Shown here: positions 7,676-60,921 of the stretch, in pieces
Layout of the letters: each line of letters opens with the position of its first letter
Numbering within the stretch: the first letter of the stretch is position 1
Virus record (IMG/VR): IMGVR_UViG_3300006033_000024
Span: 6,159 to 70,158 of that record
Origin: a virus
Direction: 5' to 3' (one strand)
Length of the DNA stretch: 64,000 bases
Made by a program: the position numbers and the translations under genes
The notes under the pieces: generated by a model
Told to the model about the DNA's origin: nothing
The model's database searches: none
Seen by the model: the letters and a program-made list of their open reading frames with translations, nothing else

Positions 7676-7693
7676 ATAAAATATCTATTTTAT
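7676..7693. repeat. ATAAAA-N6-TTTTAT site (spacer TATCTA)
   Basis: Between two fibre genes. Confidence 0.85.
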
Positions 7694-15276: not shown

Positions 15277-15294
15277 ATAAAATACTCGTTTTAT
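15277..15294. repeat. ATAAAA-N6-TTTTAT site (TACTCG)
   Basis: Just upstream of the 780-aa fibre gene. Confidence 0.85.
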
Positions 15295-15316: not shown

Positions 15317-17659
15317 ATGGCTAAATATATTAAGACAATGGTGGATGCCAACGGGGATACAATTTATCCACGCACACGGGCAAATGCCGTCACGATGTCG
15401 GATGGTGCAACCAATTTAGAAACCAAGATCAACTCCAAAGTTGATAAGACACAAAAAGTCAATACAAAGGCTTTGTCTGGCGATGTTACCCTTAACGCCG
15501 TTGATATTCCAAATACCCCTGCGGGTGGTATTGCAGCGACTAACGTCCAAACTGCGATCGACGAGTTGGACACCGAAAAGGTACGTAGGGCCGGAACATC
15601 TACAATTTCCGGTGTAAACGCAGAAGCAATCGGAAGTGGTCAAATCGCAAGTGGTGTAAACTCTTTTGCCGAAGGTGCGAATAACCGAGCATTGGGTGAC
15701 TTTTCCCATGCCGAAGGATACGATACCGAAGCATCCAATAACCAAGCACATACCGAAGGGGCTCAAACCTTTGCACAAGGGCAACAATCTCACGCAGAAG
15801 GATTGGGTACGGTTGCGTATGGTAAGGCACAACACGCAAGTGGAAAGTGGAATGTCATTCAAGGAAACCCAAGTGTTGCCAATCCAACCGATCATGCCTA
15901 TATTGTCGGAAACGGAACGGACGATGCCAACCGATCCAACGCTCTTGCCTTGCAATGGGATGGGAAGTTGCTTATTACCGATGTTGAAAGTTTTGACGGT
16001 ACGAAGCATCTGATCACAACCGATGAAAAGTTGAAGTTGTCCGGGATTGAAGCCGGTGCAGAAGTCAACAACCTTACCGATGTGAACGCACTTGACTTGA
16101 CCGATGGTGGCGATACCACGTTGCATACCCATGATGGACGGTACTACACCGAAACCGAAGTCGATACCAAAGATGCACTCAAAGCCGACAAGGTAATGGC
16201 AACGAACTTAGTAACGAATGGGGATTTCTCAAATGGTACGACAGGGTGGAGTGCGGGAAATGGCACTTTGGCAGTAACCAATGGAAAAGCGTTAGTCACA
16301 GGAACGGGGGCAAGTTCAAGTGTTTTGTTGATTCCGTCTGCGGGAGGGGCATCGGCTCTACTCAATGATAAAGTGTACATATCGGCACTTGTAAAAGTTC
16401 CAACCGAAGCTGATTATGTTGCATTACAACTTTATAATAATGCCTCTACGGTCGAAATCCCTTCAAGTTTAGGGAAGCCAATTGTTGACACAAGGGTTTC
16501 TACCATATACACACTAACGGCTGACCGACCCATTTTAAGAGGTGGTGTGCGTTGTTATTTCCCAAGTGCCGCTATCGCAAATGGGAAAATCTTTGAAGCA
16601 GATAATATCTTGTTAATCAATCTCACTCAAATCTTCGGCGCTGGTCTTGAACCGTCCAAAGAGCAAATCGACCGATTGCTTTCCATCTATCCGAACTCAT
16701 GGTTCAACGGAACATCTGAACTTGCGAACGTGAAGCAGTTGTGGAATGAAAAGGTTGACCGACTTCTTGCGACAAACTTGGTGACCAATGGGGATTTCAG
16801 CAATGGTACGACAGGGTGGTCTATGTCGGGTGCTTCCACAGCATCGGCATCGAATATTATGACTTCAACAGGCGATGGAACATCGACTATGTTTATTGGA
16901 ACACACGCAACCTCGTTTGTTTCAGCCGTAGGGAAAAAAGTTTATGCAAAATTAAAGGTTCGATTCAGAACAGCATTACCCAATCAATTTGAATTTATTG
17001 TAGATGGAATTACGGCAGGAACAAACCAAATTTTAGTAAAAACAGGGTTGGTTCTTGATACTTGGTATGACATGAGTTTTGTGGCAACACAACCGTCTGA
17101 TGTTTTGGGTTTTATAGCGTTGAAAACAGTTGCGACATATTCAAGTTCTGGTGTTGCATTAAACGCACTTATAGATTTCCAATACGTTCTTGCTCTCGAC
17201 CTAACATCCATCTTCGGTGCAGGGAAAGAACCGACCGCCGTTCAAATGGATAACCTACTCGCCAACTTCCCAAACTCATGGTTTAACGGAACGGTGGAAT
17301 TAGCAAGTCTGCTGAACATTCTGAACACGAAAGCAGATAAGACACAGGAAGCGTGGATTACACCGACATTGTTGAATGGTGCGACAAATGTTAGCGGTTA
17401 TGATGTTGGCTATTTTAAGACGTCTATTGGAATGGTTGCATTGAGGGGAAGAATCAATGTAACACAAGCAGGCACTTCAACATTTTTGTTACCAGCAGGA
17501 TATAAGTCATTAAGAAATTTAGCATTTCCTTTAATAAATATATCAACTAATACAGTAACAGCAAGACTTGTTTTAAGTGGTGGGAATAGTGCTGAATTTT
17601 ATGGGACGATACCAGCATCTTATTCATTGGATGGAATCATATTCAAGGCAGAAGCGTGA
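15317..17659 (+). CDS. Multi-domain tail fibre: YadA-head-like repeats plus two tandem carbohydrate-binding-like modules
   Basis: HAEG repeats, HTHDGRYYTETEVD, two NLVTNGDFSNGTTGW..IFGAGxEP modules, C-terminal WITPTLLNG..LPAGY domain. Confidence 0.82.
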   Translation: MAKYIKTMVDANGDTIYPRTRANAVTMSDGATNLETKINSKVDKTQKVNTKALSGDVTLNAVDIPNTPAGGIAATNVQTAIDELDTEKVRRAGTSTISGVNAEAIGSGQIASGVNSFAEGANNRALGDFSHAEGYDTEASNNQAHTEGAQTFAQGQQSHAEGLGTVAYGKAQHASGKWNVIQGNPSVANPTDHAYIVGNGTDDANRSNALALQWDGKLLITDVESFDGTKHLITTDEKLKLSGIEAGAEVNNLTDVNALDLTDGGDTTLHTHDGRYYTETEVDTKDALKADKVMATNLVTNGDFSNGTTGWSAGNGTLAVTNGKALVTGTGASSSVLLIPSAGGASALLNDKVYISALVKVPTEADYVALQLYNNASTVEIPSSLGKPIVDTRVSTIYTLTADRPILRGGVRCYFPSAAIANGKIFEADNILLINLTQIFGAGLEPSKEQIDRLLSIYPNSWFNGTSELANVKQLWNEKVDRLLATNLVTNGDFSNGTTGWSMSGASTASASNIMTSTGDGTSTMFIGTHATSFVSAVGKKVYAKLKVRFRTALPNQFEFIVDGITAGTNQILVKTGLVLDTWYDMSFVATQPSDVLGFIALKTVATYSSSGVALNALIDFQYVLALDLTSIFGAGKEPTAVQMDNLLANFPNSWFNGTVELASLLNILNTKADKTQEAWITPTLLNGATNVSGYDVGYFKTSIGMVALRGRINVTQAGTSTFLLPAGYKSLRNLAFPLINISTNTVTARLVLSGGNSAEFYGTIPASYSLDGIIFKAEA

Positions 17660-17670
17660 GGTGAAACAAC

Positions 17671-18051
17671 ATGAAACTATACAGAGTAACTGACTTAAAC
17701 GGAAACTTCTTGCGTGATGATTTCACGTTTGATGAACTGACCGAAAAAGGAATTGAAGTGGATGTACCGCAAGGATTCATCAGTCCGAAATGGGATGGTA
17801 CACAATGGATTGAAGGTGCGACACCGACAAAGTTAGCCGAAGTTGAAACGCAACGGTTAGTGTTCACGTTGAGCGAAGAAAACAGGACGAGCATCAATGC
17901 GTTCTTGAAAACGGCGATTGACGAAAACAAAGTCTACACAGCGTTGACTGCACCGACCACAACGCAGAACACGAAGCAGATTAAGGCATTGACGAAGCAG
18001 ACCAACAAGATGATTCGATTGATGTTGAACTTGTTGGATTCGGCAGAATAG
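17671..18051 (+). CDS. Tail fibre assembly/chaperone-like protein
   Basis: VPQGFISPKWDGTQWIEGAT motif, directly after the fibre gene. Confidence 0.6.
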   Translation: MKLYRVTDLNGNFLRDDFTFDELTEKGIEVDVPQGFISPKWDGTQWIEGATPTKLAEVETQRLVFTLSEENRTSINAFLKTAIDENKVYTALTAPTTTQNTKQIKALTKQTNKMIRLMLNLLDSAE

Positions 18052-18102: not shown

Positions 18103-18120
18103 ATAAAATAGTAATTTTAT
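18103..18120. repeat. ATAAAA-N6-TTTTAT site (TAGTAA)
   Basis: Just after the terminator ending the + strand block. Confidence 0.85.
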
Positions 18121-18219: not shown

Positions 18220-18813
18220 TTATGCCATGTTTAAGTCTTCCGGCATGAAGTAATGTTCTCTGATCAACTGTTTGCGATAAGATTGGATAAACGCCTTGAT
18301 CCGCATATTCACGCCACCACGCGTAATCCCAAACCTGTCTGCAATTTCTTGGTATCCAAGTTCGTCAATATAATAATCTAACACCATCTGGGCAGTATCC
18401 TTCATGGGATGATTTTGAATGTCGTGAACAACCTTTTCAAAGATGATATGATTCAATGAATCAATGGCCGGCGTCTGTAGATCTACAAAGAAATTGCCAG
18501 ATCCTTCTTCGCTATCTTCTTTGCCGGAATACTTCTGAAACGAATGGGTTTCACCGTCACGTTCGATAGTCTTATGTTTACGCAGATAGGTGTCTATAAA
18601 CCGACGGTAGATTGACATCCACAAGAAGGTTTCAATTTTGTTATTCTTTTCCGGATCATAATCGGATAACGCTTTCCACAACCCGATCCGTCCAACTTGC
18701 ATCAATTCATCGTATTCATCCAACCAATATAGATTCTTACGCTTGATGACGCTGCCGATCAACGGTTCGTACTTCTCAATCAATTCATTTTGTTCTTCTG
18801 GTGTGTAGTTCAT
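18220..18813 (-). CDS. Phage sigma-70 family RNA polymerase sigma factor
   Basis: Region 2 (DELMQVGRIGLWKALSDYD) and region 4 HTH (YQEIADRFGITRGGV). Confidence 0.88.
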   Translation of the reverse strand: MNYTPEEQNELIEKYEPLIGSVIKRKNLYWLDEYDELMQVGRIGLWKALSDYDPEKNNKIETFLWMSIYRRFIDTYLRKHKTIERDGETHSFQKYSGKEDSEEGSGNFFVDLQTPAIDSLNHIIFEKVVHDIQNHPMKDTAQMVLDYYIDELGYQEIADRFGITRGGVNMRIKAFIQSYRKQLIREHYFMPEDLNMA

Positions 18814-18836: not shown

Positions 18837-18872
18837 AATAGGGACATATCGTAAAGATACATCCCTATTTTT
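18837..18872. terminator. Hairpin / possible terminator after dnaE
   Basis: AATAGGGA..TCCCTATT inverted repeat right after the dnaE stop. Confidence 0.5.
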
Positions 18873-21800
18873 TAGCTGTTAACTTTGCGGTATGATTTCA
18901 GATACCAATTCACATATTTGCCGGATGTTTGTTTTTCCAACCAGTCCACCTTTGTGAAGATGATGTCGTACTTGCGAATCGGATTCTGATCATACACGCG
19001 ACTGCTTAGCATCAGTTCGGAACGTTTGCCAGAACCTAAGCTGGACGTTTCTAACTTGTAAGCCCAAATCTTCTTCTTGTCTTTGGTTTTCATCGCCGTT
19101 ATATCCACGATGACCAACTTGGTAGCATCTTCCAGTTTACCGGTCGATAGATCGACATACCCCAAGTGTTCCTTTTGGTATTGTATCTTTTCGGCAACAG
19201 ATAAATCGGGTAGATCCAAAGATAGAATGTACTGACCGATTTCGGCTAGGATCTCTTGGATGTTTCCATCAATGCGATATTGTCGATCTGTTTCACGGGC
19301 GTTACGGGCGATGATGCTACGGATGATTTCGTCTTCAATGGTATCCTTCTTGATGACCTTTGATGATCCGTACTTGGCATAATAATTATTCACTTGTAGC
19401 AATTCCGCAACATTCCCGAATTCATTGAAGAATCCGATCTTGATCAGAATGTCAAGTTGCTTTGTGTTAATGGATGTTGTAGCAAGGTCGCGCAACAACG
19501 CAACGAAGTCTGGATATTTATTTCCATAGAACCGTTGCATTTCATCGGCGACCGATGCGTTCATATACTTAATCGATTCTAACCCTTTATAGACAGAATT
19601 CGTTTCGCGATCCATATAGTATTCAGATTTCGAATACCGGAACTTAGGACGTTTAACCCGTATTCCATGTTTGGCAGCGTAATTCGTGACTTCAATTGTC
19701 TTGGCTTCTTTGTCGCGAAATACATTCAACGCCGTCGTAATAAATTCAAGTGGATAGTAATGTCGCAAATATCCACACGCATATCCAATGTATGAATACG
19801 CATCCGAATGATTTGACGAGAACATATAGGAACTAGCGTCTTCAACAACTTTCAAGAAAGACTGGATCACTTCGTGGGCATAATCTTTTTCATACCCATA
19901 TTTCTTGTGAACGAAGTCAACGAATCGGCGTTCGATTTCCGGTAACAACTTATCGGTGCCCTTCTTTTTACTGACGGCGCGACGAACGTTGTCGGCTTCG
20001 GATCCACTATAACCACAGAACGTTGTTAGAAACTTCATAACTTGCTCTTGGAAAACACATCGACCCAACGTATCGGAAAAGAATTGATTGATTTCTGGCA
20101 TGCCGTTATCGTAGATTTTACCTTCGGCAATTTCATCCCTAAAACTTGCACAACCCGGTCGCAACGCACCGTTAGCGAACGAGAACCATTTTAGATAACT
20201 AAACTGGGCGTTTTGTTCTTTAGCACGTTGTAATGTCGTTTCGCTAAAGAACTTGTTCATATACTGCGTTCCCATGGGTGAATTCCACTGGAAGATTGCG
20301 GCAGTATCCGAATGAATACTGTTCCACACTTTTTCATCTTCCAGATCAATGTTGTCCGGCGTAATCAATGGAATACCGGCTAACGCACATGTATCATTGA
20401 TGACTGCGATGTTGTCAAGACCCAATATATCCATCTTGACATAATTCAAAGCATCTAATTCTTTCATATCTAACATAGATACAGGATAGTCGCTTTGGGC
20501 GACGCTACACATTCCAATCGTTTCTTCAATGTCCAAATCGCTTAACAATACACCACTTGGATGTGAACCGATGGAAACAATCGTCCCCTGTACAATGTCT
20601 ACATAGTAGAACAATATGGGATACTTTTCGCGCCATTTCGGATCAATAAATTGTTGTTGGTTTTCATCTTCTTCGACTTCATTGGATATGGCGTCGGTCA
20701 CGTCTAACGGCATTTCCAACGCACGACCAATATCCTTAATCGAACCCTTTAAAGCCAAAGTATTAAAGGTAATGATTTCGCTTGATCGTAGGTTCGATAG
20801 ATTCATCTTATCTTTAAGAATGAACCCCTTGACCTTATCACGATCTTCCGAACCATAGTCCGTGTCAATATCGGCTAACGATACGCGATCCGGATTGATG
20901 AACCGGAAAAAGTTTAGGTCAAACTTAATGCTATCCATCTTGGTGATTCCAAGAACATAGGCGATGAAGGATCCGTTGACAGATCCACGTCCTACGCCAC
21001 GATGGATGTTATTCGCACGTTCCCATTGAAGTTTATAGTTTTCAAGCAACATAAACTCATGGGCGCCGGTCTTAACATAGGCGTCAAATTCAGTATCAAC
21101 AACTTCGCGAATCTTAGCCTGCGTATGTACTTTGTGGATTGTCGGATGCAACTTGATAGCAGCTTCGACTTCTTCCCGAAACCTTTCAATTGGATTGTCA
21201 TAAATCTGAGGATACTTATTACTACGATCAATCGTAAACGTTTCTACCATATCCGCCATACGGTTGGTATTTTCAATCGCATCAATATATATGAACGAAT
21301 CGACGACACCCTGTTTTGCATAGGCATCTAACAATTCATCGTAGGTTTTAAACGTCAAATCCCAACCTTCTTCATCATCAAAGAAAACCTTTTTGGCACG
21401 TTGCAACATCACGCGACCTTCTGCGTGTTTCTCGTTTAGGGAATGTGTGTCGCTGCCGGCAATTAATGGAATCCCATACTGTTTGCTATATTCTATCATG
21501 CGTAGATTGTATTCTTTTTGTTTGTCAACATTGTGATGTTGGATTTCAAGAAAACACCGATCGGCATTTGCGCTCATATAATCCAACATACTTTGTTGCA
21601 GTTCGGCAGATCCACGCCCTAAGACGCCACCGATACACGCCGTCGTTAGGATAAGGTTGTCTGAAATGCCAAACAACTCTTTAAACGTAATGCGTGGCGA
21701 ATAGTAATAATGTCCGTCTTCACGATTGAACGATTTACTGACCAACCGATTCAACTCAAGAAAACCTTGGTAGTTTTTGGCAATTAAAATAAGGTGGTAG

Positions 21801-22051
21801 TTATCACGGATTTTTTCGTCTAAGGATTCAGTAACATAAACTTCCGAAGCGTGAATGTATTTTAATCCCGCTTTTTCGATTGCCTGTTTCTTTGAAAACC
21901 ATCCGAATAGATTTCCATGTTCAGAAAACGCCATTGCGCCCATGCCTAAATTTTTGGCGTATTGGATATAATCGTCAAACTTTGTTACCGAATCGCAACC
22001 CGAAACAAGGGACAAATCGGAATGAAGATGATATGGCGTATAATTTCCCAA
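18872..22051 (-). CDS. dnaE: DNA polymerase III alpha subunit (family C)
   Basis: PHP domain (HLHSDLS, SEHGN, SDTH), GRGS, ADIDTD catalytic motif, KMDILGL, FSSNHSDAY. Confidence 0.96.
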   Translation of the reverse strand: MGNYTPYHLHSDLSLVSGCDSVTKFDDYIQYAKNLGMGAMAFSEHGNLFGWFSKKQAIEKAGLKYIHASEVYVTESLDEKIRDNYHLILIAKNYQGFLELNRLVSKSFNREDGHYYYSPRITFKELFGISDNLILTTACIGGVLGRGSAELQQSMLDYMSANADRCFLEIQHHNVDKQKEYNLRMIEYSKQYGIPLIAGSDTHSLNEKHAEGRVMLQRAKKVFFDDEEGWDLTFKTYDELLDAYAKQGVVDSFIYIDAIENTNRMADMVETFTIDRSNKYPQIYDNPIERFREEVEAAIKLHPTIHKVHTQAKIREVVDTEFDAYVKTGAHEFMLLENYKLQWERANNIHRGVGRGSVNGSFIAYVLGITKMDSIKFDLNFFRFINPDRVSLADIDTDYGSEDRDKVKGFILKDKMNLSNLRSSEIITFNTLALKGSIKDIGRALEMPLDVTDAISNEVEEDENQQQFIDPKWREKYPILFYYVDIVQGTIVSIGSHPSGVLLSDLDIEETIGMCSVAQSDYPVSMLDMKELDALNYVKMDILGLDNIAVINDTCALAGIPLITPDNIDLEDEKVWNSIHSDTAAIFQWNSPMGTQYMNKFFSETTLQRAKEQNAQFSYLKWFSFANGALRPGCASFRDEIAEGKIYDNGMPEINQFFSDTLGRCVFQEQVMKFLTTFCGYSGSEADNVRRAVSKKKGTDKLLPEIERRFVDFVHKKYGYEKDYAHEVIQSFLKVVEDASSYMFSSNHSDAYSYIGYACGYLRHYYPLEFITTALNVFRDKEAKTIEVTNYAAKHGIRVKRPKFRYSKSEYYMDRETNSVYKGLESIKYMNASVADEMQRFYGNKYPDFVALLRDLATTSINTKQLDILIKIGFFNEFGNVAELLQVNNYYAKYGSSKVIKKDTIEDEIIRSIIARNARETDRQYRIDGNIQEILAEIGQYILSLDLPDLSVAEKIQYQKEHLGYVDLSTGKLEDATKLVIVDITAMKTKDKKKIWAYKLETSSLGSGKRSELMLSSRVYDQNPIRKYDIIFTKVDWLEKQTSGKYVNWYLKSYRKVNS

Positions 22052-48323: not shown

Positions 48324-48341
48324 ATAAAAGAACCGTTTTAT
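48324..48341. repeat. ATAAAA-N6-TTTTAT site (GAACCG)
   Basis: Between a promoter and an RBS. Confidence 0.85.
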
Positions 48342-50080: not shown

Positions 50081-50537
50081 ATTTATTTGCCTTTGATTTA
50101 ACCCACGGACGAATTTCGGTCTTGAACAAGAAATACAGTAGATCAGTCGCATTACCGACAAACACCATCGCCCAATACCATTGATAGGCATCTGCATTAC
50201 TTATTCCCAACAAAGTTGCAATCGGAAACACCGGCAACGCAAGAACGAATTCAATGATTATAAAGAAGAAAGCCAAAACATCGTGCCAATATTGACCAAA
50301 CATCTTAACTGTAGCGTCAAACGAATCAGAATATAGTAACTGATATGTATTAGCGTAAATGATCAAAATGTGCAAAACCATAAGTGGCAAAGACACAACT
50401 GGCGCACCAATCCATTTGAAAAACCAATAAGCAAGTACCAAGTCAACCAGATATGAAATAAATTTCCATACCAAATTCACCCTTTTATTCTTAAACATAT
50501 GTATTTCTTTTTTCATAACCCCTCCATAAGCAACCAT
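50067..50537 (-). CDS. Multi-pass membrane protein
   Basis: About four hydrophobic helices; RBS GGAGGG before MKKEIH. Confidence 0.65.
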   Translation of the reverse strand: MVAYGGVMKKEIHMFKNKRVNLVWKFISYLVDLVLAYWFFKWIGAPVVSLPLMVLHILIIYANTYQLLYSDSFDATVKMFGQYWHDVLAFFFIIIEFVLALPVFPIATLLGISNADAYQWYWAMVFVGNATDLLYFLFKTEIRPWVKSKANKYVQK

Positions 50538-50575
50538 ATCAAGTTGCTTTTCGTTATAGCAACCAATTTAAGTTG

Positions 50576-50992
50576 CTATTTAAACAATTCTTTCATTTTG
50601 GCAATTTGTATTTCTCTTTCGCGTCCCAATTCAAGAAGTCTTTCTGCTTTGATTCTCTCTCGTTCATCTTCCCTACGAGCAGCTTCGGCTTTTAAAGATT
50701 CAATGTATAACTCAAATTCATCTTTCCATGGCCCGTCAATCAACCAACCATAACTTTCAGTCCAACCACGATCGCCATCAACCATCCCATATACATTAAG
50801 CCGATTATCCCCATTAAAAGGTTTAGACGGATCATAAACATCAATACAAAACGTTTTACCTCTGGCGTGTTGCCCTAATGTGAAGATAAAATTTCCGTGG
50901 CGATATTCTTTAAAGCCACTCTTAGTTAAATCGCCATAGTAACCTAAAACAGCGTCGTAAATAATGTCAAAATACTCTCTTGCACCCTTCAT
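50576..50992 (-). CDS. Hypothetical protein
   Basis: RBS AGGAGG. Confidence 0.65.
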   Translation of the reverse strand: MKGAREYFDIIYDAVLGYYGDLTKSGFKEYRHGNFIFTLGQHARGKTFCIDVYDPSKPFNGDNRLNVYGMVDGDRGWTESYGWLIDGPWKDEFELYIESLKAEAARREDERERIKAERLLELGREREIQIAKMKELFK

Positions 50993-51014
50993 TTTACATC
51001 CTCCTATTTAGCAC

Positions 51015-51032
51015 ATAAAACTTCTGTTTTAT
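51015..51032. repeat. ATAAAA-N6-TTTTAT site (CTTCTG)
   Basis: Intergenic. Confidence 0.85.
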
Positions 51033-51122
51033 TCCTTATAATTTCGTGGATAACGTACATTAGATTTTCTTGGTAAAGATCCCATTAAGAAAATCAAAAT
51101 AACACAAATGACGATCTCCATC

Positions 51123-51656
51123 CTATTTCTTCAACTTCGATTCGCCTAACAAATCTTCAAGCTGTTTATCAAGCGCCCACCCCAAACCATTAACCGGTTT
51201 TTTCTTTTTCTTAAACAATGACTTTATCCATCCGGTGAATCGAAGGAAGTAATACTCTCTCAATTGCCACGTCCAGTTGATTCTTGACCACAATATTTCC
51301 CAACGCGTTACCGGTGGCATAGGGGTAATAACGTTGTAGAACACGGCTAGATCAATAATGTCGCCATCAAACCTATCAGAATCATACCAATCTAACGAAT
51401 CGTAATACGACAGCAACTCGTCTAATTTGTGTAACTTGGCAGCTTCGGTAAAAGCCATCTGCCAACCATAAGATCCACTCGCATAAACCCAAGTTTCCTC
51501 ATCATTGTAACCTAAGTTACTGCCATAAGTACCCTTACCCAAGTGTTTTTGCAACCCATACCGTAACGTTTGCAAGAACGACTTTGTGATCATCGCCTTA
51601 TATTCTTCTGGGATACTATACTCGATTGTTCCTTCGTCAGTTATTGGCATACGCAC
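51123..51656 (-). CDS. Hypothetical protein
   Basis: 177-aa ORF in operon context. Confidence 0.6.
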   Translation of the reverse strand: MRMPITDEGTIEYSIPEEYKAMITKSFLQTLRYGLQKHLGKGTYGSNLGYNDEETWVYASGSYGWQMAFTEAAKLHKLDELLSYYDSLDWYDSDRFDGDIIDLAVFYNVITPMPPVTRWEILWSRINWTWQLREYYFLRFTGWIKSLFKKKKKPVNGLGWALDKQLEDLLGESKLKK

Positions 51657-51933
51657 CCACTACCTTTTGTTCGGTCACATCAATGCGATCACAAGTATCA
51701 AACGAAAACCCATCATCCAATAAAACGGTCAACCGATATTTATTGTTATCTGTCGGTTGAATGGCATATTCATTCGTCCAAATCTTAACACTACTCTCAA
51801 AGAACCCATCATTTTGACAGTAAATGTAATACTTATAGGTCGCCTTTTTATCTGCTAACGGATCCTTGCTGCTACATCCGAATAAGAAAATCGCTAGCAA
51901 TACAACAAGTAATTTTTTCATGTTGCCCCTCAT
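51637..51933 (-). CDS. Putative lipoprotein
   Basis: MKKLLVVLLAIFLFGC lipobox-like signal peptide. Confidence 0.65.
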   Translation of the reverse strand: MRGNMKKLLVVLLAIFLFGCSSKDPLADKKATYKYYIYCQNDGFFESSVKIWTNEYAIQPTDNNKYRLTVLLDDGFSFDTCDRIDVTEQKVVGAYANN

Positions 51934-52145
51934 TTATATCTCTCCTTATTCGCTTTGATTTTCTTTCGATAATTTAAATCTAATAATGTTAAAGCAACTA
52001 CAGCTGCGACCACGATTATAACCAATAATGCAATTAGCCCCCATATTCCAGAGTGCTGCGCATATAGCATAAAAAGAGAAAACAGAGTAGCAGTAACGAG
52101 TACTCCAAAAACCAAACCTACGTTCTTCAAAATAATTTTTAACAT
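51930..52145 (-). CDS. Two-TM membrane protein
   Basis: Two hydrophobic helices and a basic tail; RBS AGGAG. Confidence 0.6.
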   Translation of the reverse strand: MLKIILKNVGLVFGVLVTATLFSLFMLYAQHSGIWGLIALLVIIVVAAVVALTLLDLNYRKKIKANKERYK

Positions 52146-52154
52146 TTTGTTCTC

Positions 52155-52331
52155 CTATAAAACTTTCGTTTCTTTATTTTCTTCTTCGATCACGCAAATA
52201 ACCCCAACAGGCTTGTATTTACCGTTATAACTCATCAAAAGATTGTCAATCTGAACCGAATCCGGTTCTTTTCCGACGCCAAATATAGAGGTTAAATTTA
52301 TTTTAATTCCATTAGCAACATACAATTTCAT
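52155..52331 (-). CDS. 58-aa ORF (not in ORF track) carrying the tail-fibre LTSIFGxGKEP motif
   Basis: MKLYVANGIKINLTSIFGVGKEPDSVQIDNLLMSYNGKYKPVGVICVIEEENKETKVL; RBS AGGAG 7 nt upstream. Confidence 0.7.
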   Translation of the reverse strand: MKLYVANGIKINLTSIFGVGKEPDSVQIDNLLMSYNGKYKPVGVICVIEEENKETKVL

Positions 52332-52340
52332 ATCGAACTC

Positions 52341-52706
52341 CTATAAAACTCTCGTTTTATCTTTTGGTTGAAATCCATACCGATCCATGCGAACGCTTTC
52401 AATACATATACCGAAGATCCAACGCAATTCTTCGCGATTGTAAGGTTTAGTCATATACGACGCCCGGAACGGATATTTATACCATTCAATCTTCAATCCG
52501 GTCGGTTTATATTCAAAATTTGGCAACGGATCGTTTTCGTCCGACCAATTATAGGGACGAATCGCGAACGTGTCGTTTTCAAACCCTTTTCCGTGCGAAT
52601 TCATGCCATAGGCGTCCAAGCCACAAACTTTTAAAAGGTTGTGCCAATAAAGTTCCATTACCAAGTCACGATCCACAAGATGATCATACTTATACATACT
52701 GTTCAT
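52341..52706 (-). CDS. Conserved-looking phage protein bounded by two palindrome sites
   Basis: FENDTFAIRPYNW..PNFEYKPTGLKIEWYKYPFR; RBS GAGGT. Confidence 0.7.
   Translation of the reverse strand: MNSMYKYDHLVDRDLVMELYWHNLLKVCGLDAYGMNSHGKGFENDTFAIRPYNWSDENDPLPNFEYKPTGLKIEWYKYPFRASYMTKPYNREELRWIFGICIESVRMDRYGFQPKDKTRVL
52343..52360. repeat. ATAAAA-N6-TTTTAT site (CTCTCG); 2-mismatch copy at 52157-52174
   Basis: Encodes a gene C-terminus, followed by AGGAG. Confidence 0.85.
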
Positions 52707-52722
52707 TATTTACCTCTTGCAG

Positions 52723-52740
52723 ATAAAACTGCGATTTTAT
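52723..52740. repeat. ATAAAA-N6-TTTTAT site (CTGCGA)
   Basis: Abuts a stop codon. Confidence 0.88.
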
Positions 52741-53025
52741 TTATATGAGATCGTTGCGATCTGCCCACTCCCAAAAATTACGCAACAAAGACAACAATAG
52801 CGGAATCAAAAGGATGAGAAACACAAACCACAAAATCGAACCAATCTGGCTCCCTAGAACGCTAACCAACCAATCTCCACATAAAAGCACAATCGCAATA
52901 GAAACAAAAAAGCCACCAACATTAGCAAAATAGAACAATACAAATTTCATCATCTTAATATAATCATCAAATATTTTTTTCATTGTGTTTTTACCTCTAT
53001 TCTCCCCGATCAAAATGATCGGCAA
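52741..53025 (-). CDS. Two-TM membrane protein (real start probably MKKIFD)
   Basis: Hydrophobic helices. Confidence 0.55.
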   Translation of the reverse strand: MPIILIGENRGKNTMKKIFDDYIKMMKFVLFYFANVGGFFVSIAIVLLCGDWLVSVLGSQIGSILWFVFLILLIPLLLSLLRNFWEWADRNDLI

Positions 53026-53617
53026 GTTTACCGTTTTTCATACGAACATACTTGCAAATCTGACCGTTGATGTTGATTACAAACCCCTCAACGTTACGAC
53101 CAACCTCTTGGGTATACTGATCGTATAAATAGTTCAACGCACCAATGTTCAAGTCCTCGTACCCAGCTTCCGGCAAAACCACCGGAACATGTTCGATAAA
53201 ACTTGGCGTCCAATCTTCTTGAAAAGAATAGTGAAACAAGTTAGGATCATACTTTAAGTTGGAAACTTTAAGGGAAATATCGACGTTGCCTTTGGCGAAC
53301 ATGAAGAATCTATTATTGCCAAAGTCGTATTTAAGTTTTCCCATGCCAATCCACTCACCCCAGATAGCACTACCATCATTCAATGAGGTTAACAGGCTTT
53401 CGCCATATTCTTTTAACCAACCATATAACCCCTTGTACAAAACAGGTTTTGCGTCTTCAATCTCGCTTAGCGTAAACACATTGCTTCTGGTTGCAATATA
53501 AAGCGTGTCACCTAATTTAAAAAACCCAAGGTTACTTCCGTCTAGTTTTTCTGTAATGATGATATTCGGATTCAACCCAATCCGAACCGTCTTGGGATAT
53601 AACTCTTTTTTGATCAT
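52997..53617 (-). CDS. RNA ligase (Rnl2-type nucleotidyltransferase domain)
   Basis: YPKT, TEKLDGSN (motif I), WGEW, EGFV, KY; RBS GGAGG. Confidence 0.8.
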   Translation of the reverse strand: MIKKELYPKTVRIGLNPNIIITEKLDGSNLGFFKLGDTLYIATRSNVFTLSEIEDAKPVLYKGLYGWLKEYGESLLTSLNDGSAIWGEWIGMGKLKYDFGNNRFFMFAKGNVDISLKVSNLKYDPNLFHYSFQEDWTPSFIEHVPVVLPEAGYEDLNIGALNYLYDQYTQEVGRNVEGFVININGQICKYVRMKNGKLADHFDRGE

Positions 53618-53627
53618 GTGTTCCTCC

Positions 53628-53645
53628 ATAAAACCCTTGTTTTAT
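53628..53645. repeat. ATAAAA-N6-TTTTAT site (CCCTTG)
   Basis: Between the MTase and the RNA ligase, followed by GGAGG. Confidence 0.88.
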
Positions 53646-53661
53646 TTTTTAATGCAAAATA

Positions 53662-54774
53662 TCAATTCTTATAAAATACATATACGCCCTCTGATTTCGG
53701 CTTATCAATACCGTTATCATCTTTATGACCAGATCCTTTTCTTGTTTGTAATTTCATTTCAAGTTTTTCCACAAAATCAAAACCAACCTCTTTACTTGCT
53801 TCAATCCATCTATCAACATATTGAACCTTTTTATTTCCAACATTGAAATCGGCTATGTTGACCGCATAGAACCGATTATGTTTCAACATCCCATAAATAT
53901 TTTGTATTGTGGGCTTAACATATCCGGCTATCCAAGATTCAATATCGCCAAACTTAATATAGCACTGCGTATCTTCGTCGGAATAGGACTCTAAATTGAA
54001 ATAAGGTGGGCTGCTAAACGCAAAATCTGCCGTTAGTGGATGGTAATTGATGTTTTCGCTACCGGAACACAATACTTTAAAAGAGTTTTTGCGCCCAGTA
54101 ACCGATTCGATGTATCCACCTAATACCTTTAGGTTTTCATATGTTTCGGTACACGGATCGACTCCGAAATATTTGTAATTGTTTTTGCTTGTTAATGCAC
54201 CCAACATACGCCCACCGAAACCACACGAATAGTCAAAGATAACCCCGTTTTGGGGGCAATACTTCTCATAAATCGACTTAGCCTTCATAGGTGGAAAATT
54301 TGTGGCAACGTTACCACCAATTAACCTTGAGTTACGATATAACCCACTATAAATATTCCGTAATCTTTCATATGTCAAAGCGAACCTAATTGTTTTTTTA
54401 AGTTTATGATCATCATAGAATCTATCGTACATAGAGTTGCCCTTGGCGCCCTTGCACTGGACTTGGTGTAAATTCTTGAACAGCAACATACAAACATACT
54501 GCCCAGCATTACTTTTTTCGTCAACCACCTTGTTCAACTTGACATCCTTACCAATACATTTGACAATCTCTTTTTTAATTCCATCTTCATTAAAATAATA
54601 TATGGGGAAAATGTTTTTTGATCTTACAACGTTAAAGATTTTCTCAACCACTTCGTCCTTTGCCGCATCATCCAACAAGTTAAAGTCATCCGGTGAAATG
54701 ATGTCGATTTGATTCATAACATCTTCATATCCGGTAGACGTTTCTGTTGGACTTGTATAATCCCAATTAAACAT
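53662..54774 (-). CDS. DNA amino-methyltransferase (N4C/N6A-type)
   Basis: DYSCGFGGR SAM-binding motif; FSSPPYFNLE catalytic motif. Confidence 0.85.
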   Translation of the reverse strand: MFNWDYTSPTETSTGYEDVMNQIDIISPDDFNLLDDAAKDEVVEKIFNVVRSKNIFPIYYFNEDGIKKEIVKCIGKDVKLNKVVDEKSNAGQYVCMLLFKNLHQVQCKGAKGNSMYDRFYDDHKLKKTIRFALTYERLRNIYSGLYRNSRLIGGNVATNFPPMKAKSIYEKYCPQNGVIFDYSCGFGGRMLGALTSKNNYKYFGVDPCTETYENLKVLGGYIESVTGRKNSFKVLCSGSENINYHPLTADFAFSSPPYFNLESYSDEDTQCYIKFGDIESWIAGYVKPTIQNIYGMLKHNRFYAVNIADFNVGNKKVQYVDRWIEASKEVGFDFVEKLEMKLQTRKGSGHKDDNGIDKPKSEGVYVFYKN

Positions 54775-54806
54775 TTGACATCCCCCTTGTTTTATTTACT
54801 GTTATC

Positions 54807-60648: not shown

Positions 60649-60677
60649 ATTATACCATTTTTAAGGGTTATTTGCAA
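60649..60677 (-). promoter_or_regulatory. SigA-type promoter whose -35 abuts a palindrome site
   Basis: TTGCAA-17 bp-TATAAT, extended -10. Confidence 0.68.
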
Positions 60678-60694
60678 TAAAAACCGTATTTTAT
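60677..60694. repeat. ATAAAA-N6-TTTTAT site (ACCGTA)
   Basis: After a stop codon, abutting a -35 box. Confidence 0.85.
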
Positions 60695-60696
60695 GG

Positions 60697-60921
60697 CTAA
60701 ATTAACTCGACAATATGCTTTTCAATACTCTTAATATCGGACTCAAAATATGTAGTAATACTCCACATACTTCCGATTTCATGGTAGATACGAATTGTAC
60801 CATTTAGCCCACGCATATCAATGAACTCACGATCATAACAGCTAATCGTTTTGCCGTTAAAAAAATGAATCACATACAACGTTGTTGTACCGGGCATTAT
60901 GCCGCCTCCTGCGTTACCCAC
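60697..60921 (-). CDS. Hypothetical protein (real start probably MPGTT)
   Basis: RBS AGGAGG. Confidence 0.5.
   Translation of the reverse strand: MGNAGGGIMPGTTTLYVIHFFNGKTISCYDREFIDMRGLNGTIRIYHEIGSMWSITTYFESDIKSIEKHIVELI

Follow-up and report, generated by a model that had tools for sequence, protein, structure and literature searches.

Possible Origin of a 58-Residue Phage ORF from the Closing Segment of a Tail Fiber Module

Among the small non-structural genes of a virus lies a 58-codon ORF, the predicted product of which resembles a part of the tail fiber encoded by the same phage. A preliminary description of this locus proposed either that the ORF encodes a free peptide that mimics a fiber interaction motif (a decoy for a host sensor, an assembly modulator, or a means of interference with competing phages), or that it represents a captured gene fragment. 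The question is, therefore, whether the ORF is a gene with a role of its own or a displaced piece of a fiber gene, and from where such a piece could have come.

The 58-aa ORF and Its Surroundings

The window, i.e., the whole stretch of 64,000 nt that was analyzed, comprises bases 6159–70158 of a 70-kb IMG/VR virus record, the completeness of which is estimated at 57%. The ORF (52155–52331, minus strand) is intact and consists of 58 codons, and its product is MKLYVANGIKINLTSIFGVGKEPDSVQIDNLLMSYNGKYKPVGVICVIEEENKETKVL. A Shine–Dalgarno (SD) sequence, AGGAG, is located at 52342–52338 on the same strand, 6 nt 5′ of the ATG, and abuts a palindromic site (TTTTATAGGAG). Both the intact reading frame and its AGGAG had been reported previously, and both were borne out, as was the location of the ORF about 35 kb away from the fiber gene, on the opposite strand and among small non-structural ORFs. 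The upstream neighbor, a 121-aa ORF (52341–52706, minus strand), carries the palindromic site at its 3′ end and terminates 9 nt from the ATG of the 58-aa ORF. Another 9 nt separate the stop codon of the latter from the start of a 71-aa ORF (51930–52145, minus strand) with two hydrophobic stretches, which is followed by a 98-aa ORF (51637–51933, minus strand) with a lipoprotein-like signal peptide. The G–C content is 0.33 for each of the 58-aa and 71-aa ORFs, and 0.36–0.42 for their neighbors.

Two of the genes nearby deserve mention in their own right. The signal peptide of the 98-aa ORF was read by eye (...LFGC), and this ORF gave weak PHROG matches to Cor-type superinfection-exclusion proteins (E-value, 0.0042) and to Rz-like spanins (E-value, 0.0096). 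The RNA ligase encoded at 52997–53629 (minus strand) is 43–45% identical to the ligases of Lactococcus P087-group phages and of an Aerococcus phage.

Scans of the 58-aa ORF against Pfam, PHROGs, PADLOC, and NCBIfam yielded no families, a search of the ESM Atlas found the sequence itself and no usable match, and tRNA and Rfam searches of the region returned nothing. When modeled alone, the product of the ORF has a pLDDT of 68, a moderate to low confidence; two helices are seen, the N-terminus has no structure, and a hairpin is weakly predicted at the C-terminus.

With an ORF this short, it may be asked whether it is a gene at all, or rather an untranslated relic in which the open frame and the similarity to the fiber are incidental. 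The ORF is a singleton, it is dispensable in a relative of the phage (see below), and no RNA evidence was found among the sequencing runs searched: no RNA dataset is listed among them, and two of the runs (X2 and X3) have no cover over the ORF. However, the similarity described in the next section is far beyond chance, the frame is open across the whole interval between the gene junctions, and the SD sequence and its spacing are canonical. In addition, the codon adaptation index (CAI) is 0.777 in frame, which is above the values of both other frames (0.671 and 0.693), with 0.63–0.78 observed for the neighboring genes. An untranslated relic is, thus, very unlikely. Based on the exact site, the SD sequence, the ATG, and the in-frame codon usage, the ORF is probably translated.

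Relationship to the Tail Fiber of the Same Phage

The tail fiber is a 780-aa protein (15317–17659, plus strand) with two tandem CBM-like jelly-roll modules, and an exact palindromic site is present upstream of its gene, at 15277–15294. Two copies of the motif in question are found in this protein, one at the end of module 1 (residues 424–458; 16586–16690, plus strand) and the other at the end of module 2 (residues 625–651; 17189–17269, plus strand). BLASTP aligned the 58-aa ORF with residues 625–651 at 16/27 identical positions (E-value, 9 × 10−10) and with residues 424–458 at 19/35 (E-value, 7 × 10−8). The earlier count of 16 identities in 20 residues, made over LTSIFG...DNLL, is correct by direct reading, and the likeness to the first fiber repeat that had also been noticed is real. 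When the fiber was used as a tblastn query against the whole window, the 58-aa ORF was recovered with an E-value of 4.8 × 10−6; the alignment reaches the end of the ORF with one 5-residue gap, and YNG of the ORF is paired with FNGT of the fiber. No homology to the rest of the module was detected upstream of the start of the ORF in any frame.

There is no relation between the ORF and the phage's own fiber at the DNA level. The nucleotide identity to the two fiber copies is 45/81 and 38/75, and different codons are used at 12 of the 16 identical residues. The shared codons amount to 4/16 and 6/16, while random synonymous sites would give 6.2 and 6.6 under the codon usage of this phage; the synonymous sites between the ORF and the fiber are fully randomized. 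Since no codon similarity to the fiber of the same phage is left, the ORF was either copied long ago or derived from another phage. The preliminary description had taken the numerous synonymous differences as a sign that the peptide is conserved and not a recent copy. The differences themselves were confirmed, but selection on the free peptide does not follow from them: the motif is conserved in fibers generally, so a fragment captured from any such fiber would look the same.

The template repeats of diversity-generating retroelements are nearly identical in DNA to the variable region, from which they differ at adenines specifically. That the 58-aa ORF is a template of this kind was rejected on the basis of the nucleotide identities given above and of the random codon choice. 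Prediction of a complex between the 58-aa ORF and fiber residues 478–680, run without controls, resulted in a score of 0.00 against a mark of 0.32.

Directly after the fiber gene, a 126-aa ORF (17671–18051, plus strand) has weak PHROG matches, including one to 'tail fiber protein' phrog_1766 (E-value, 6.5 × 10−5), and may be a true fiber accessory or assembly gene. The window also encodes a sigma-factor-like protein (18220–18813, minus strand; PHROG 351; E-value, 1.2 × 10−12) and a 1059-aa ORF (18872–22051, minus strand) that, read by eye, is a look-alike of the DNA polymerase III alpha subunit.

The Module-End Motif in Other Fibers

The fiber was modeled using AlphaFold2 with an alignment of 18 sequences. 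The first 290 residues were modeled poorly, and the two beta-sandwich modules (residues 292–435 and 484–628) have pLDDT values that are mostly 80–90. In a Foldseek search, the modules matched a tandem CBM22 structure (4xup; E-value, 5 × 10−9) and other carbohydrate-binding jelly rolls. The motif begins in the model as the last long strand (residues 425–435 in module 1, and 618–628 in module 2), which is followed by a short helix (436–440/629–633), the GxGxEP loop, and a second helix (448–456/641–648). According to this model, the motif appears to be the last beta-strand and the helix-loop-helix that close a CBM-like jelly-roll module.

Projected onto this segment, residues 2–11 of the 58-aa ORF correspond to the last beta-strand of the module, residues 12–35 to the conserved LTxxFGxGxEP...D..LL helix-loop-helix, and residues 36–58 to a diverged linker. 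The beta-sandwich itself, which spans about 140 residues and begins with TNLVxNGDFSNGTTGW, is missing from the ORF, and one strand with two short helices cannot form a beta-sandwich alone. Instead of being part of a long multi-module structural protein, the segment stands alone among non-structural genes. In an alignment of 19 sequences (A1), the ORF retains L13, T14, F17, G18, G20, E22, P23, and D29, i.e., all seven of the invariant motif residues (L, T, G, G, E, P, and D) and the near-invariant F. Like the closing segments of the CBM-like modules, which belong to an unnamed family structurally nearest to carbohydrate-binding modules of the CBM22/CBM4-9 type, it has the L-T-x-x-F-G-x-G-x-E-P...D motif, a hydrophobic last strand before it, and an amphipathic helix after it, whereas the (P)NSWF(D/N)GT linker usual in the fiber modules is reduced to YNG.

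A HMMER search with the 58-aa ORF against 1.84 billion representatives returned 34 proteins at E-values ≤ 10−3. The 29 matches inspected comprise 24 motif-bearing proteins, one protein of 58 aa (P0016), and four repeat proteins (P0002, P0017, P0026, and P0033), which lack the motif and were rejected as unrelated; P0021, P0022, P0029, and P0034 are outside the inspected set. All but one of the 24 motif-bearing proteins are 352–1360 aa long and mostly contain several modules, the remaining one (P0027) being 229 aa in length. A regular-expression census revealed 78 instances of the motif in 41 other proteins. Over the 27-residue core, the fiber copies of the same phage share 16 residues with the 58-aa ORF, and several foreign copies share 15. 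Over 35 residues, the best score is that of P0016 (20), followed by P0008 (18) and by the two copies of the phage's own fiber (17 and 16). As foreign copies match nearly as well as the phage's own, the motif is not peculiar to this fiber, and the likeness of the ORF is to module ends in general and not specifically to the fiber encoded in the same genome.

By sequence, the motif is not covered by any Pfam, PHROG, or NCBIfam model or by any solved structure. In a search of 50,697 deposited phage records, matches to the fiber are confined to its residues 15–223, and the CBM-like module family has none; the same family is common in metagenomic proteins, as seen by HMMER. A scan of GTDB genomes with A3 gave one match, located in a 381-aa fiber-like ORF of a Bacillota MAG. 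The connector profile detected no motif in phage phi116 and none in three further IMG/VR records, while the control fiber was detected with an E-value of 1.6 × 10−13. A literature search yielded nothing relevant on the motif, on fiber-derived decoys, or on fiber-derived small ORFs.

Stand-Alone Relatives and the Possibility of a Free Peptide

A search for stand-alone homologs had been suggested as a check on the mimicry proposal. It produced no conserved family: apart from a cluster of two near-identical proteins (P0016 and P0035), four sporadic short ORFs on short contigs were found. A word-index search among proteins of similar length returned the 58-aa ORF itself and no other, and among longer proteins it returned none, which is weak evidence by the tool's own statement. 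When a profile of 19 connectors was compared with 63 candidates of 31–111 aa, five matches were obtained, the 58-aa ORF included. The other four (P0038–P0041) originate from contigs of 635–4596 nt and look like ends or fragments of fiber genes. P0016 and its one-residue variant P0035, both of 58 aa, occur on three contigs, the longest of which is 13178 nt. P0016 is the closest match of the 58-aa ORF (20/35; 47–48% identity), and the two share YVAxGI before the motif; the 5/8 identity in that part is not an outlier, given that other fibers reach 4/8. Together, P0016/P0035 and the 58-aa ORF could constitute a small real family.

Scans of IMG/VR with the 58-aa ORF, P0016, the RNA ligase, and the 71-aa ORF gave no relatives, and those with the 121-aa and 370-aa neighbors gave distant loci without synteny and nothing closer. 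Among JGI metagenome contigs, nothing was found for P0016, and distant loci alone were found for the 121-aa ORF. Megablast of positions 50500–54800 against deposited phages gave no match. One tblastn match (H1, LR745206.1; E = 3) was dismissed as due to chance, the surrounding translations having the appearance of tRNA genes.

On the whole, it is doubtful that the 58-aa ORF encodes a functional free peptide. One form of this reading, which we regard as rather unlikely, is that a free module-end peptide acts on CBM-type fibers by docking its exposed edge strand and helices on nascent modules; it could modulate the folding or trimerization of the phage's own fiber, or poison the fibers of co-infecting phages with the same module family. 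Such a role would agree with the retention of the invariant residues, with the coincidence of the ORF boundaries and the connector boundaries in the fiber model, with the exact regulatory site, the strong SD sequence, and the native-like codon usage, and with the fact that the nearest relative, P0016/P0035, is a second stand-alone protein of 58 aa. However, no conserved family was found, the gene is missing from a relative that is about 90% identical, and the peptide would meet the fiber of its own phage as well. The low-confidence model of the ORF alone (pLDDT, 68), in which the N-terminal strand is unstructured, also speaks against this reading. A more specific version seems still less probable, namely that the 58-aa ORF and P0016 are rare free 'connector' peptides, expressed early, that interfere with or template the folding or oligomerization of CBM-type fibers, e.g., for the sabotage of rivals, and possibly in cooperation with the membrane ORF. 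If the peptide were functional, it would represent a novel means by which a phage influences the assembly of fibers.

A Repeated Palindrome and a Duplicated Junction

The site upstream of the 58-aa ORF (52343–52360) matches the palindrome ATAAAA-N6-TTTTAT exactly, and it shares sequence with the final codons (KTRVL) and the stop codon of the 121-aa ORF. The window contains 20 exact copies of this palindrome, compared with 0.29 or 0.1 expected, and two copies with one mismatch. The copies (e.g., at 7676, 15277, 18103, 33641, 40973, 42158, 51015, 52343, 52723, 53628, and 60677) are intergenic or placed over gene ends, and lie just 5′ of the SD sequence of the next gene on either strand, with the exception of that at 18103, which is located between convergent genes. 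The genes behind them include those for the fiber (15277), the 58-aa ORF (52343), the 121-aa ORF (52723), and the RNA ligase (53628), and TTTTATAGGAG, in which the site abuts the SD sequence, is read by five copies.

A promoter, an operator, or an RNA element are the candidate roles of the palindrome. Scanning of 52343–52360 resulted in no promoter-like or terminator-like call, and the RNA hairpin that the palindrome may form is weak (z-scores from −0.6 to −1.2). Elsewhere in the window, one site was seen by eye to abut a near-consensus sigma70 promoter (60677–60740, minus strand; TTGCAA, 17 nt, TATAAT), and the site at 48324 to lie just downstream of a TATAAT. The palindrome is not restricted to this phage. 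A complete 137.7-kb IMG/VR phage (G001) contains 53 copies of it and none of the reversed control, and Mammaliicoccus phage phi116 contains 26 copies against one of the control, with the site abutting AGGAG there too. In the excerpted account of the SPBRE of SPbeta (MrpR), this element is a 15-bp motif found at about ten promoters (PMC10516654). The palindrome is not equated with it here, because that excerpt provides a 15-bp description and no sequence (PMC10516654). The palindrome, which is present also in two other phages of about 134–138 kb, is probably a more useful lead than the 58-aa ORF: one of the two phages is in culture and would allow the function of the site to be mapped.

The 58-aa ORF had been described as bounded by such sites on both sides. 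This is accurate for 52343, whereas the sequence at 52157–52177, located before the SD sequence of the 71-aa ORF, is not an exact site but a degenerate copy, in which 3 nt are inserted in frame and the spacer is changed once, and it falls outside the set of 20 exact and two one-mismatch copies. This decayed copy encodes the C-terminus (NKETKVL) and the stop of the 58-aa ORF. A direct repeat of 29 nt (D1; 83% identity) was detected at 52143–52171 and 52329–52357, with a spacing of 186 nt. The 3′ end of the 121-aa ORF reads GAT AAA ACG AGA GTT TTA TAG, and that of the 58-aa ORF reads AAT AAA GAA ACG AAA GTT TTA TAG, so that the two genes end in one and the same site, the two versions of which differ by an extra codon and two substitutions, and both terminate in (R/K)VL-stop. 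The matching ends indicate that the C-terminus and the stop of the 58-aa ORF, together with the SD sequence of the next gene, derive from a duplicate of the upstream site that has decayed.

Absence of the ORF from a Close Relative

Parts of the region 51600–53100 were present in seven sequencing runs, one of which (X1) has 97% of the sampled words and may be the sample from which the record originates. In another run (X4), a 644-nt contig (record 19) of a relative that is about 90% identical skips a block of 413 nt (51925–52337, minus strand), in which the 58-aa and 71-aa ORFs are co-inherited. This contig joins 51924 to 52338, the joint abutting the SD sequence and the site. In order, it comprises 51810–51924, two other letters, 52338–52360 (the SD sequence and the site, without differences), 75 unlike letters, and 52451–52876. 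At 23 nt, the middle piece is shorter than the 30 nt below which the tool advises caution, and the argument is carried by the long flanks: these are collinear, 115 nt and 429 nt in length, and lie 100 nt apart in the contig compared with 526 nt in the window, which leaves no space in the relative for the 58-aa ORF or for the 71-aa ORF. The 121-aa ORF is kept in the relative, where its site and SD sequence run straight into the lipoprotein-like gene at the MKKLL start. No palindromic site is present at the right end of the 413-nt indel. Other contigs from X4 are identical to the window over 52898–53362 (RNA ligase), while the regions of the 121-aa and lipoprotein-like ORFs differ from it by about 10%, which points to a mosaic relationship between the two phages. 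The 'cassette' nature ascribed earlier to the ORF is supported by the contig that skips the block. Because the block is absent from one relative, the 58-aa ORF is dispensable, from which it does not follow that it is functionless.

The joint absence of the two ORFs would also be compatible with a two-gene envelope module, in which the 58-aa ORF would serve as a co-opted soluble partner of the 71-aa membrane ORF, e.g., in superinfection exclusion, with the adjacent lipoprotein-like ORF perhaps as a further member. Besides their location in one indel block, the two ORFs have the same G–C content of 0.33, and the 98-aa ORF combines a lipoprotein-like signal peptide with the weak Cor-like PHROG match (E-value, 0.0042). 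Nevertheless, neither ORF matches Pfam, PHROGs, PADLOC, or NCBIfam above the cut-offs, the 71-aa ORF has no relatives in IMG/VR, and the duplicated junction between the two suggests two separate insertions and not one unit. Such a module is, therefore, considered distinctly improbable.

Proposed Origin

The location of the 58-aa ORF in a swappable two-gene insert that is missing from a close relative makes it most likely that the ORF is a captured gene fragment, and leaves fiber mimicry unproven. Capture, one of the options put forward in the preliminary description, is the best fit both to the homology with a module end and to the absence of the block from the relative. We assign a probability of about 0.55 to the view that the ORF, situated in a hyperplastic region of small genes, is an ORFan that derives from a fragment and is translated but dispensable. 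The source piece would have been the segment that closes a CBM-like jelly-roll module, consisting of the last beta-strand, the LTxxFGxGxEP turn-helix, the second helix, and the linker, and it may have come from an ancient or foreign fiber gene. Recombination at the repeated ATAAAA-N6-TTTTAT probably brought it into a hyperplastic run of small early/non-structural genes. Its product would be dispensable to the phage, and the conservation of the motif would be inherited from the fiber context instead of reflecting selection on the free peptide.

Several features fit less comfortably with capture of a fragment. The ORF is intact and tightly packed, and a strong SD sequence and an exact site precede it. 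Homology sets in at residue 2, coinciding with a structural boundary where the last strand starts, and extends over approximately the whole inter-module connector, which is neater than a random capture need be. The invariant residues have all been kept while the following linker diverged, and the insertion that breaks the downstream site stays in frame. Finally, there is a second stand-alone protein of 58 aa, P0016/P0035.

If capture of a fragment is nonetheless the correct explanation, the locus is a clean, datable example of the birth of a phage ORFan, in which a piece of a structural gene in a hyperplastic region gains its start, stop, and ribosome-binding site from a duplicated regulatory junction. 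It also carries a caution for the interpretation of small ORFs, in that conservation of amino acids without conservation of codons is no proof of selection on a small ORF when a large parent family conserves the same motif.

Comparison with Known Systems

Tail fiber assembly chaperones of the Tfa/gp38 type are small phage proteins related to the fiber. The 58-aa ORF was rejected as a member of this group, as it has no Pfam or PHROG match and lies 35 kb from the fiber gene on the other strand; unlike these chaperones, it is homologous to the fiber itself and not to a chaperone.

Orphan genes that are fragments of older genes have been described (PMC2447293). As far as the excerpted account allows comparison, the 58-aa ORF is likewise short, has no stand-alone family, and shows homology to a part of a larger gene alone, but it differs in having a nameable parent domain and a complete translation-initiation region.

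The closest described process may be, by analogy, the modular shuffling mediated by PeSLs in T4-type phages (PMC2839356). In the portions of the literature consulted, PeSLs are mobile regulatory cassettes composed of a sigma70-like early promoter and a terminator stem-loop (Arbiol et al. 2010, PMC2839356; Comeau et al. 2014, PMC4122927). Measured against that description, the repeat found here is different, being an 18-bp A/T palindrome that abuts the SD sequence, with no sigma70 consensus and a weak hairpin. Nevertheless, on the same partial account, both systems have small non-essential ORFans in a hyperplastic region, delimited by a regulatory motif that recurs between genes, and in both cases cassettes are gained or lost between close relatives at that motif, as exemplified here by the block 51925–52337 that is skipped in the X4 relative.
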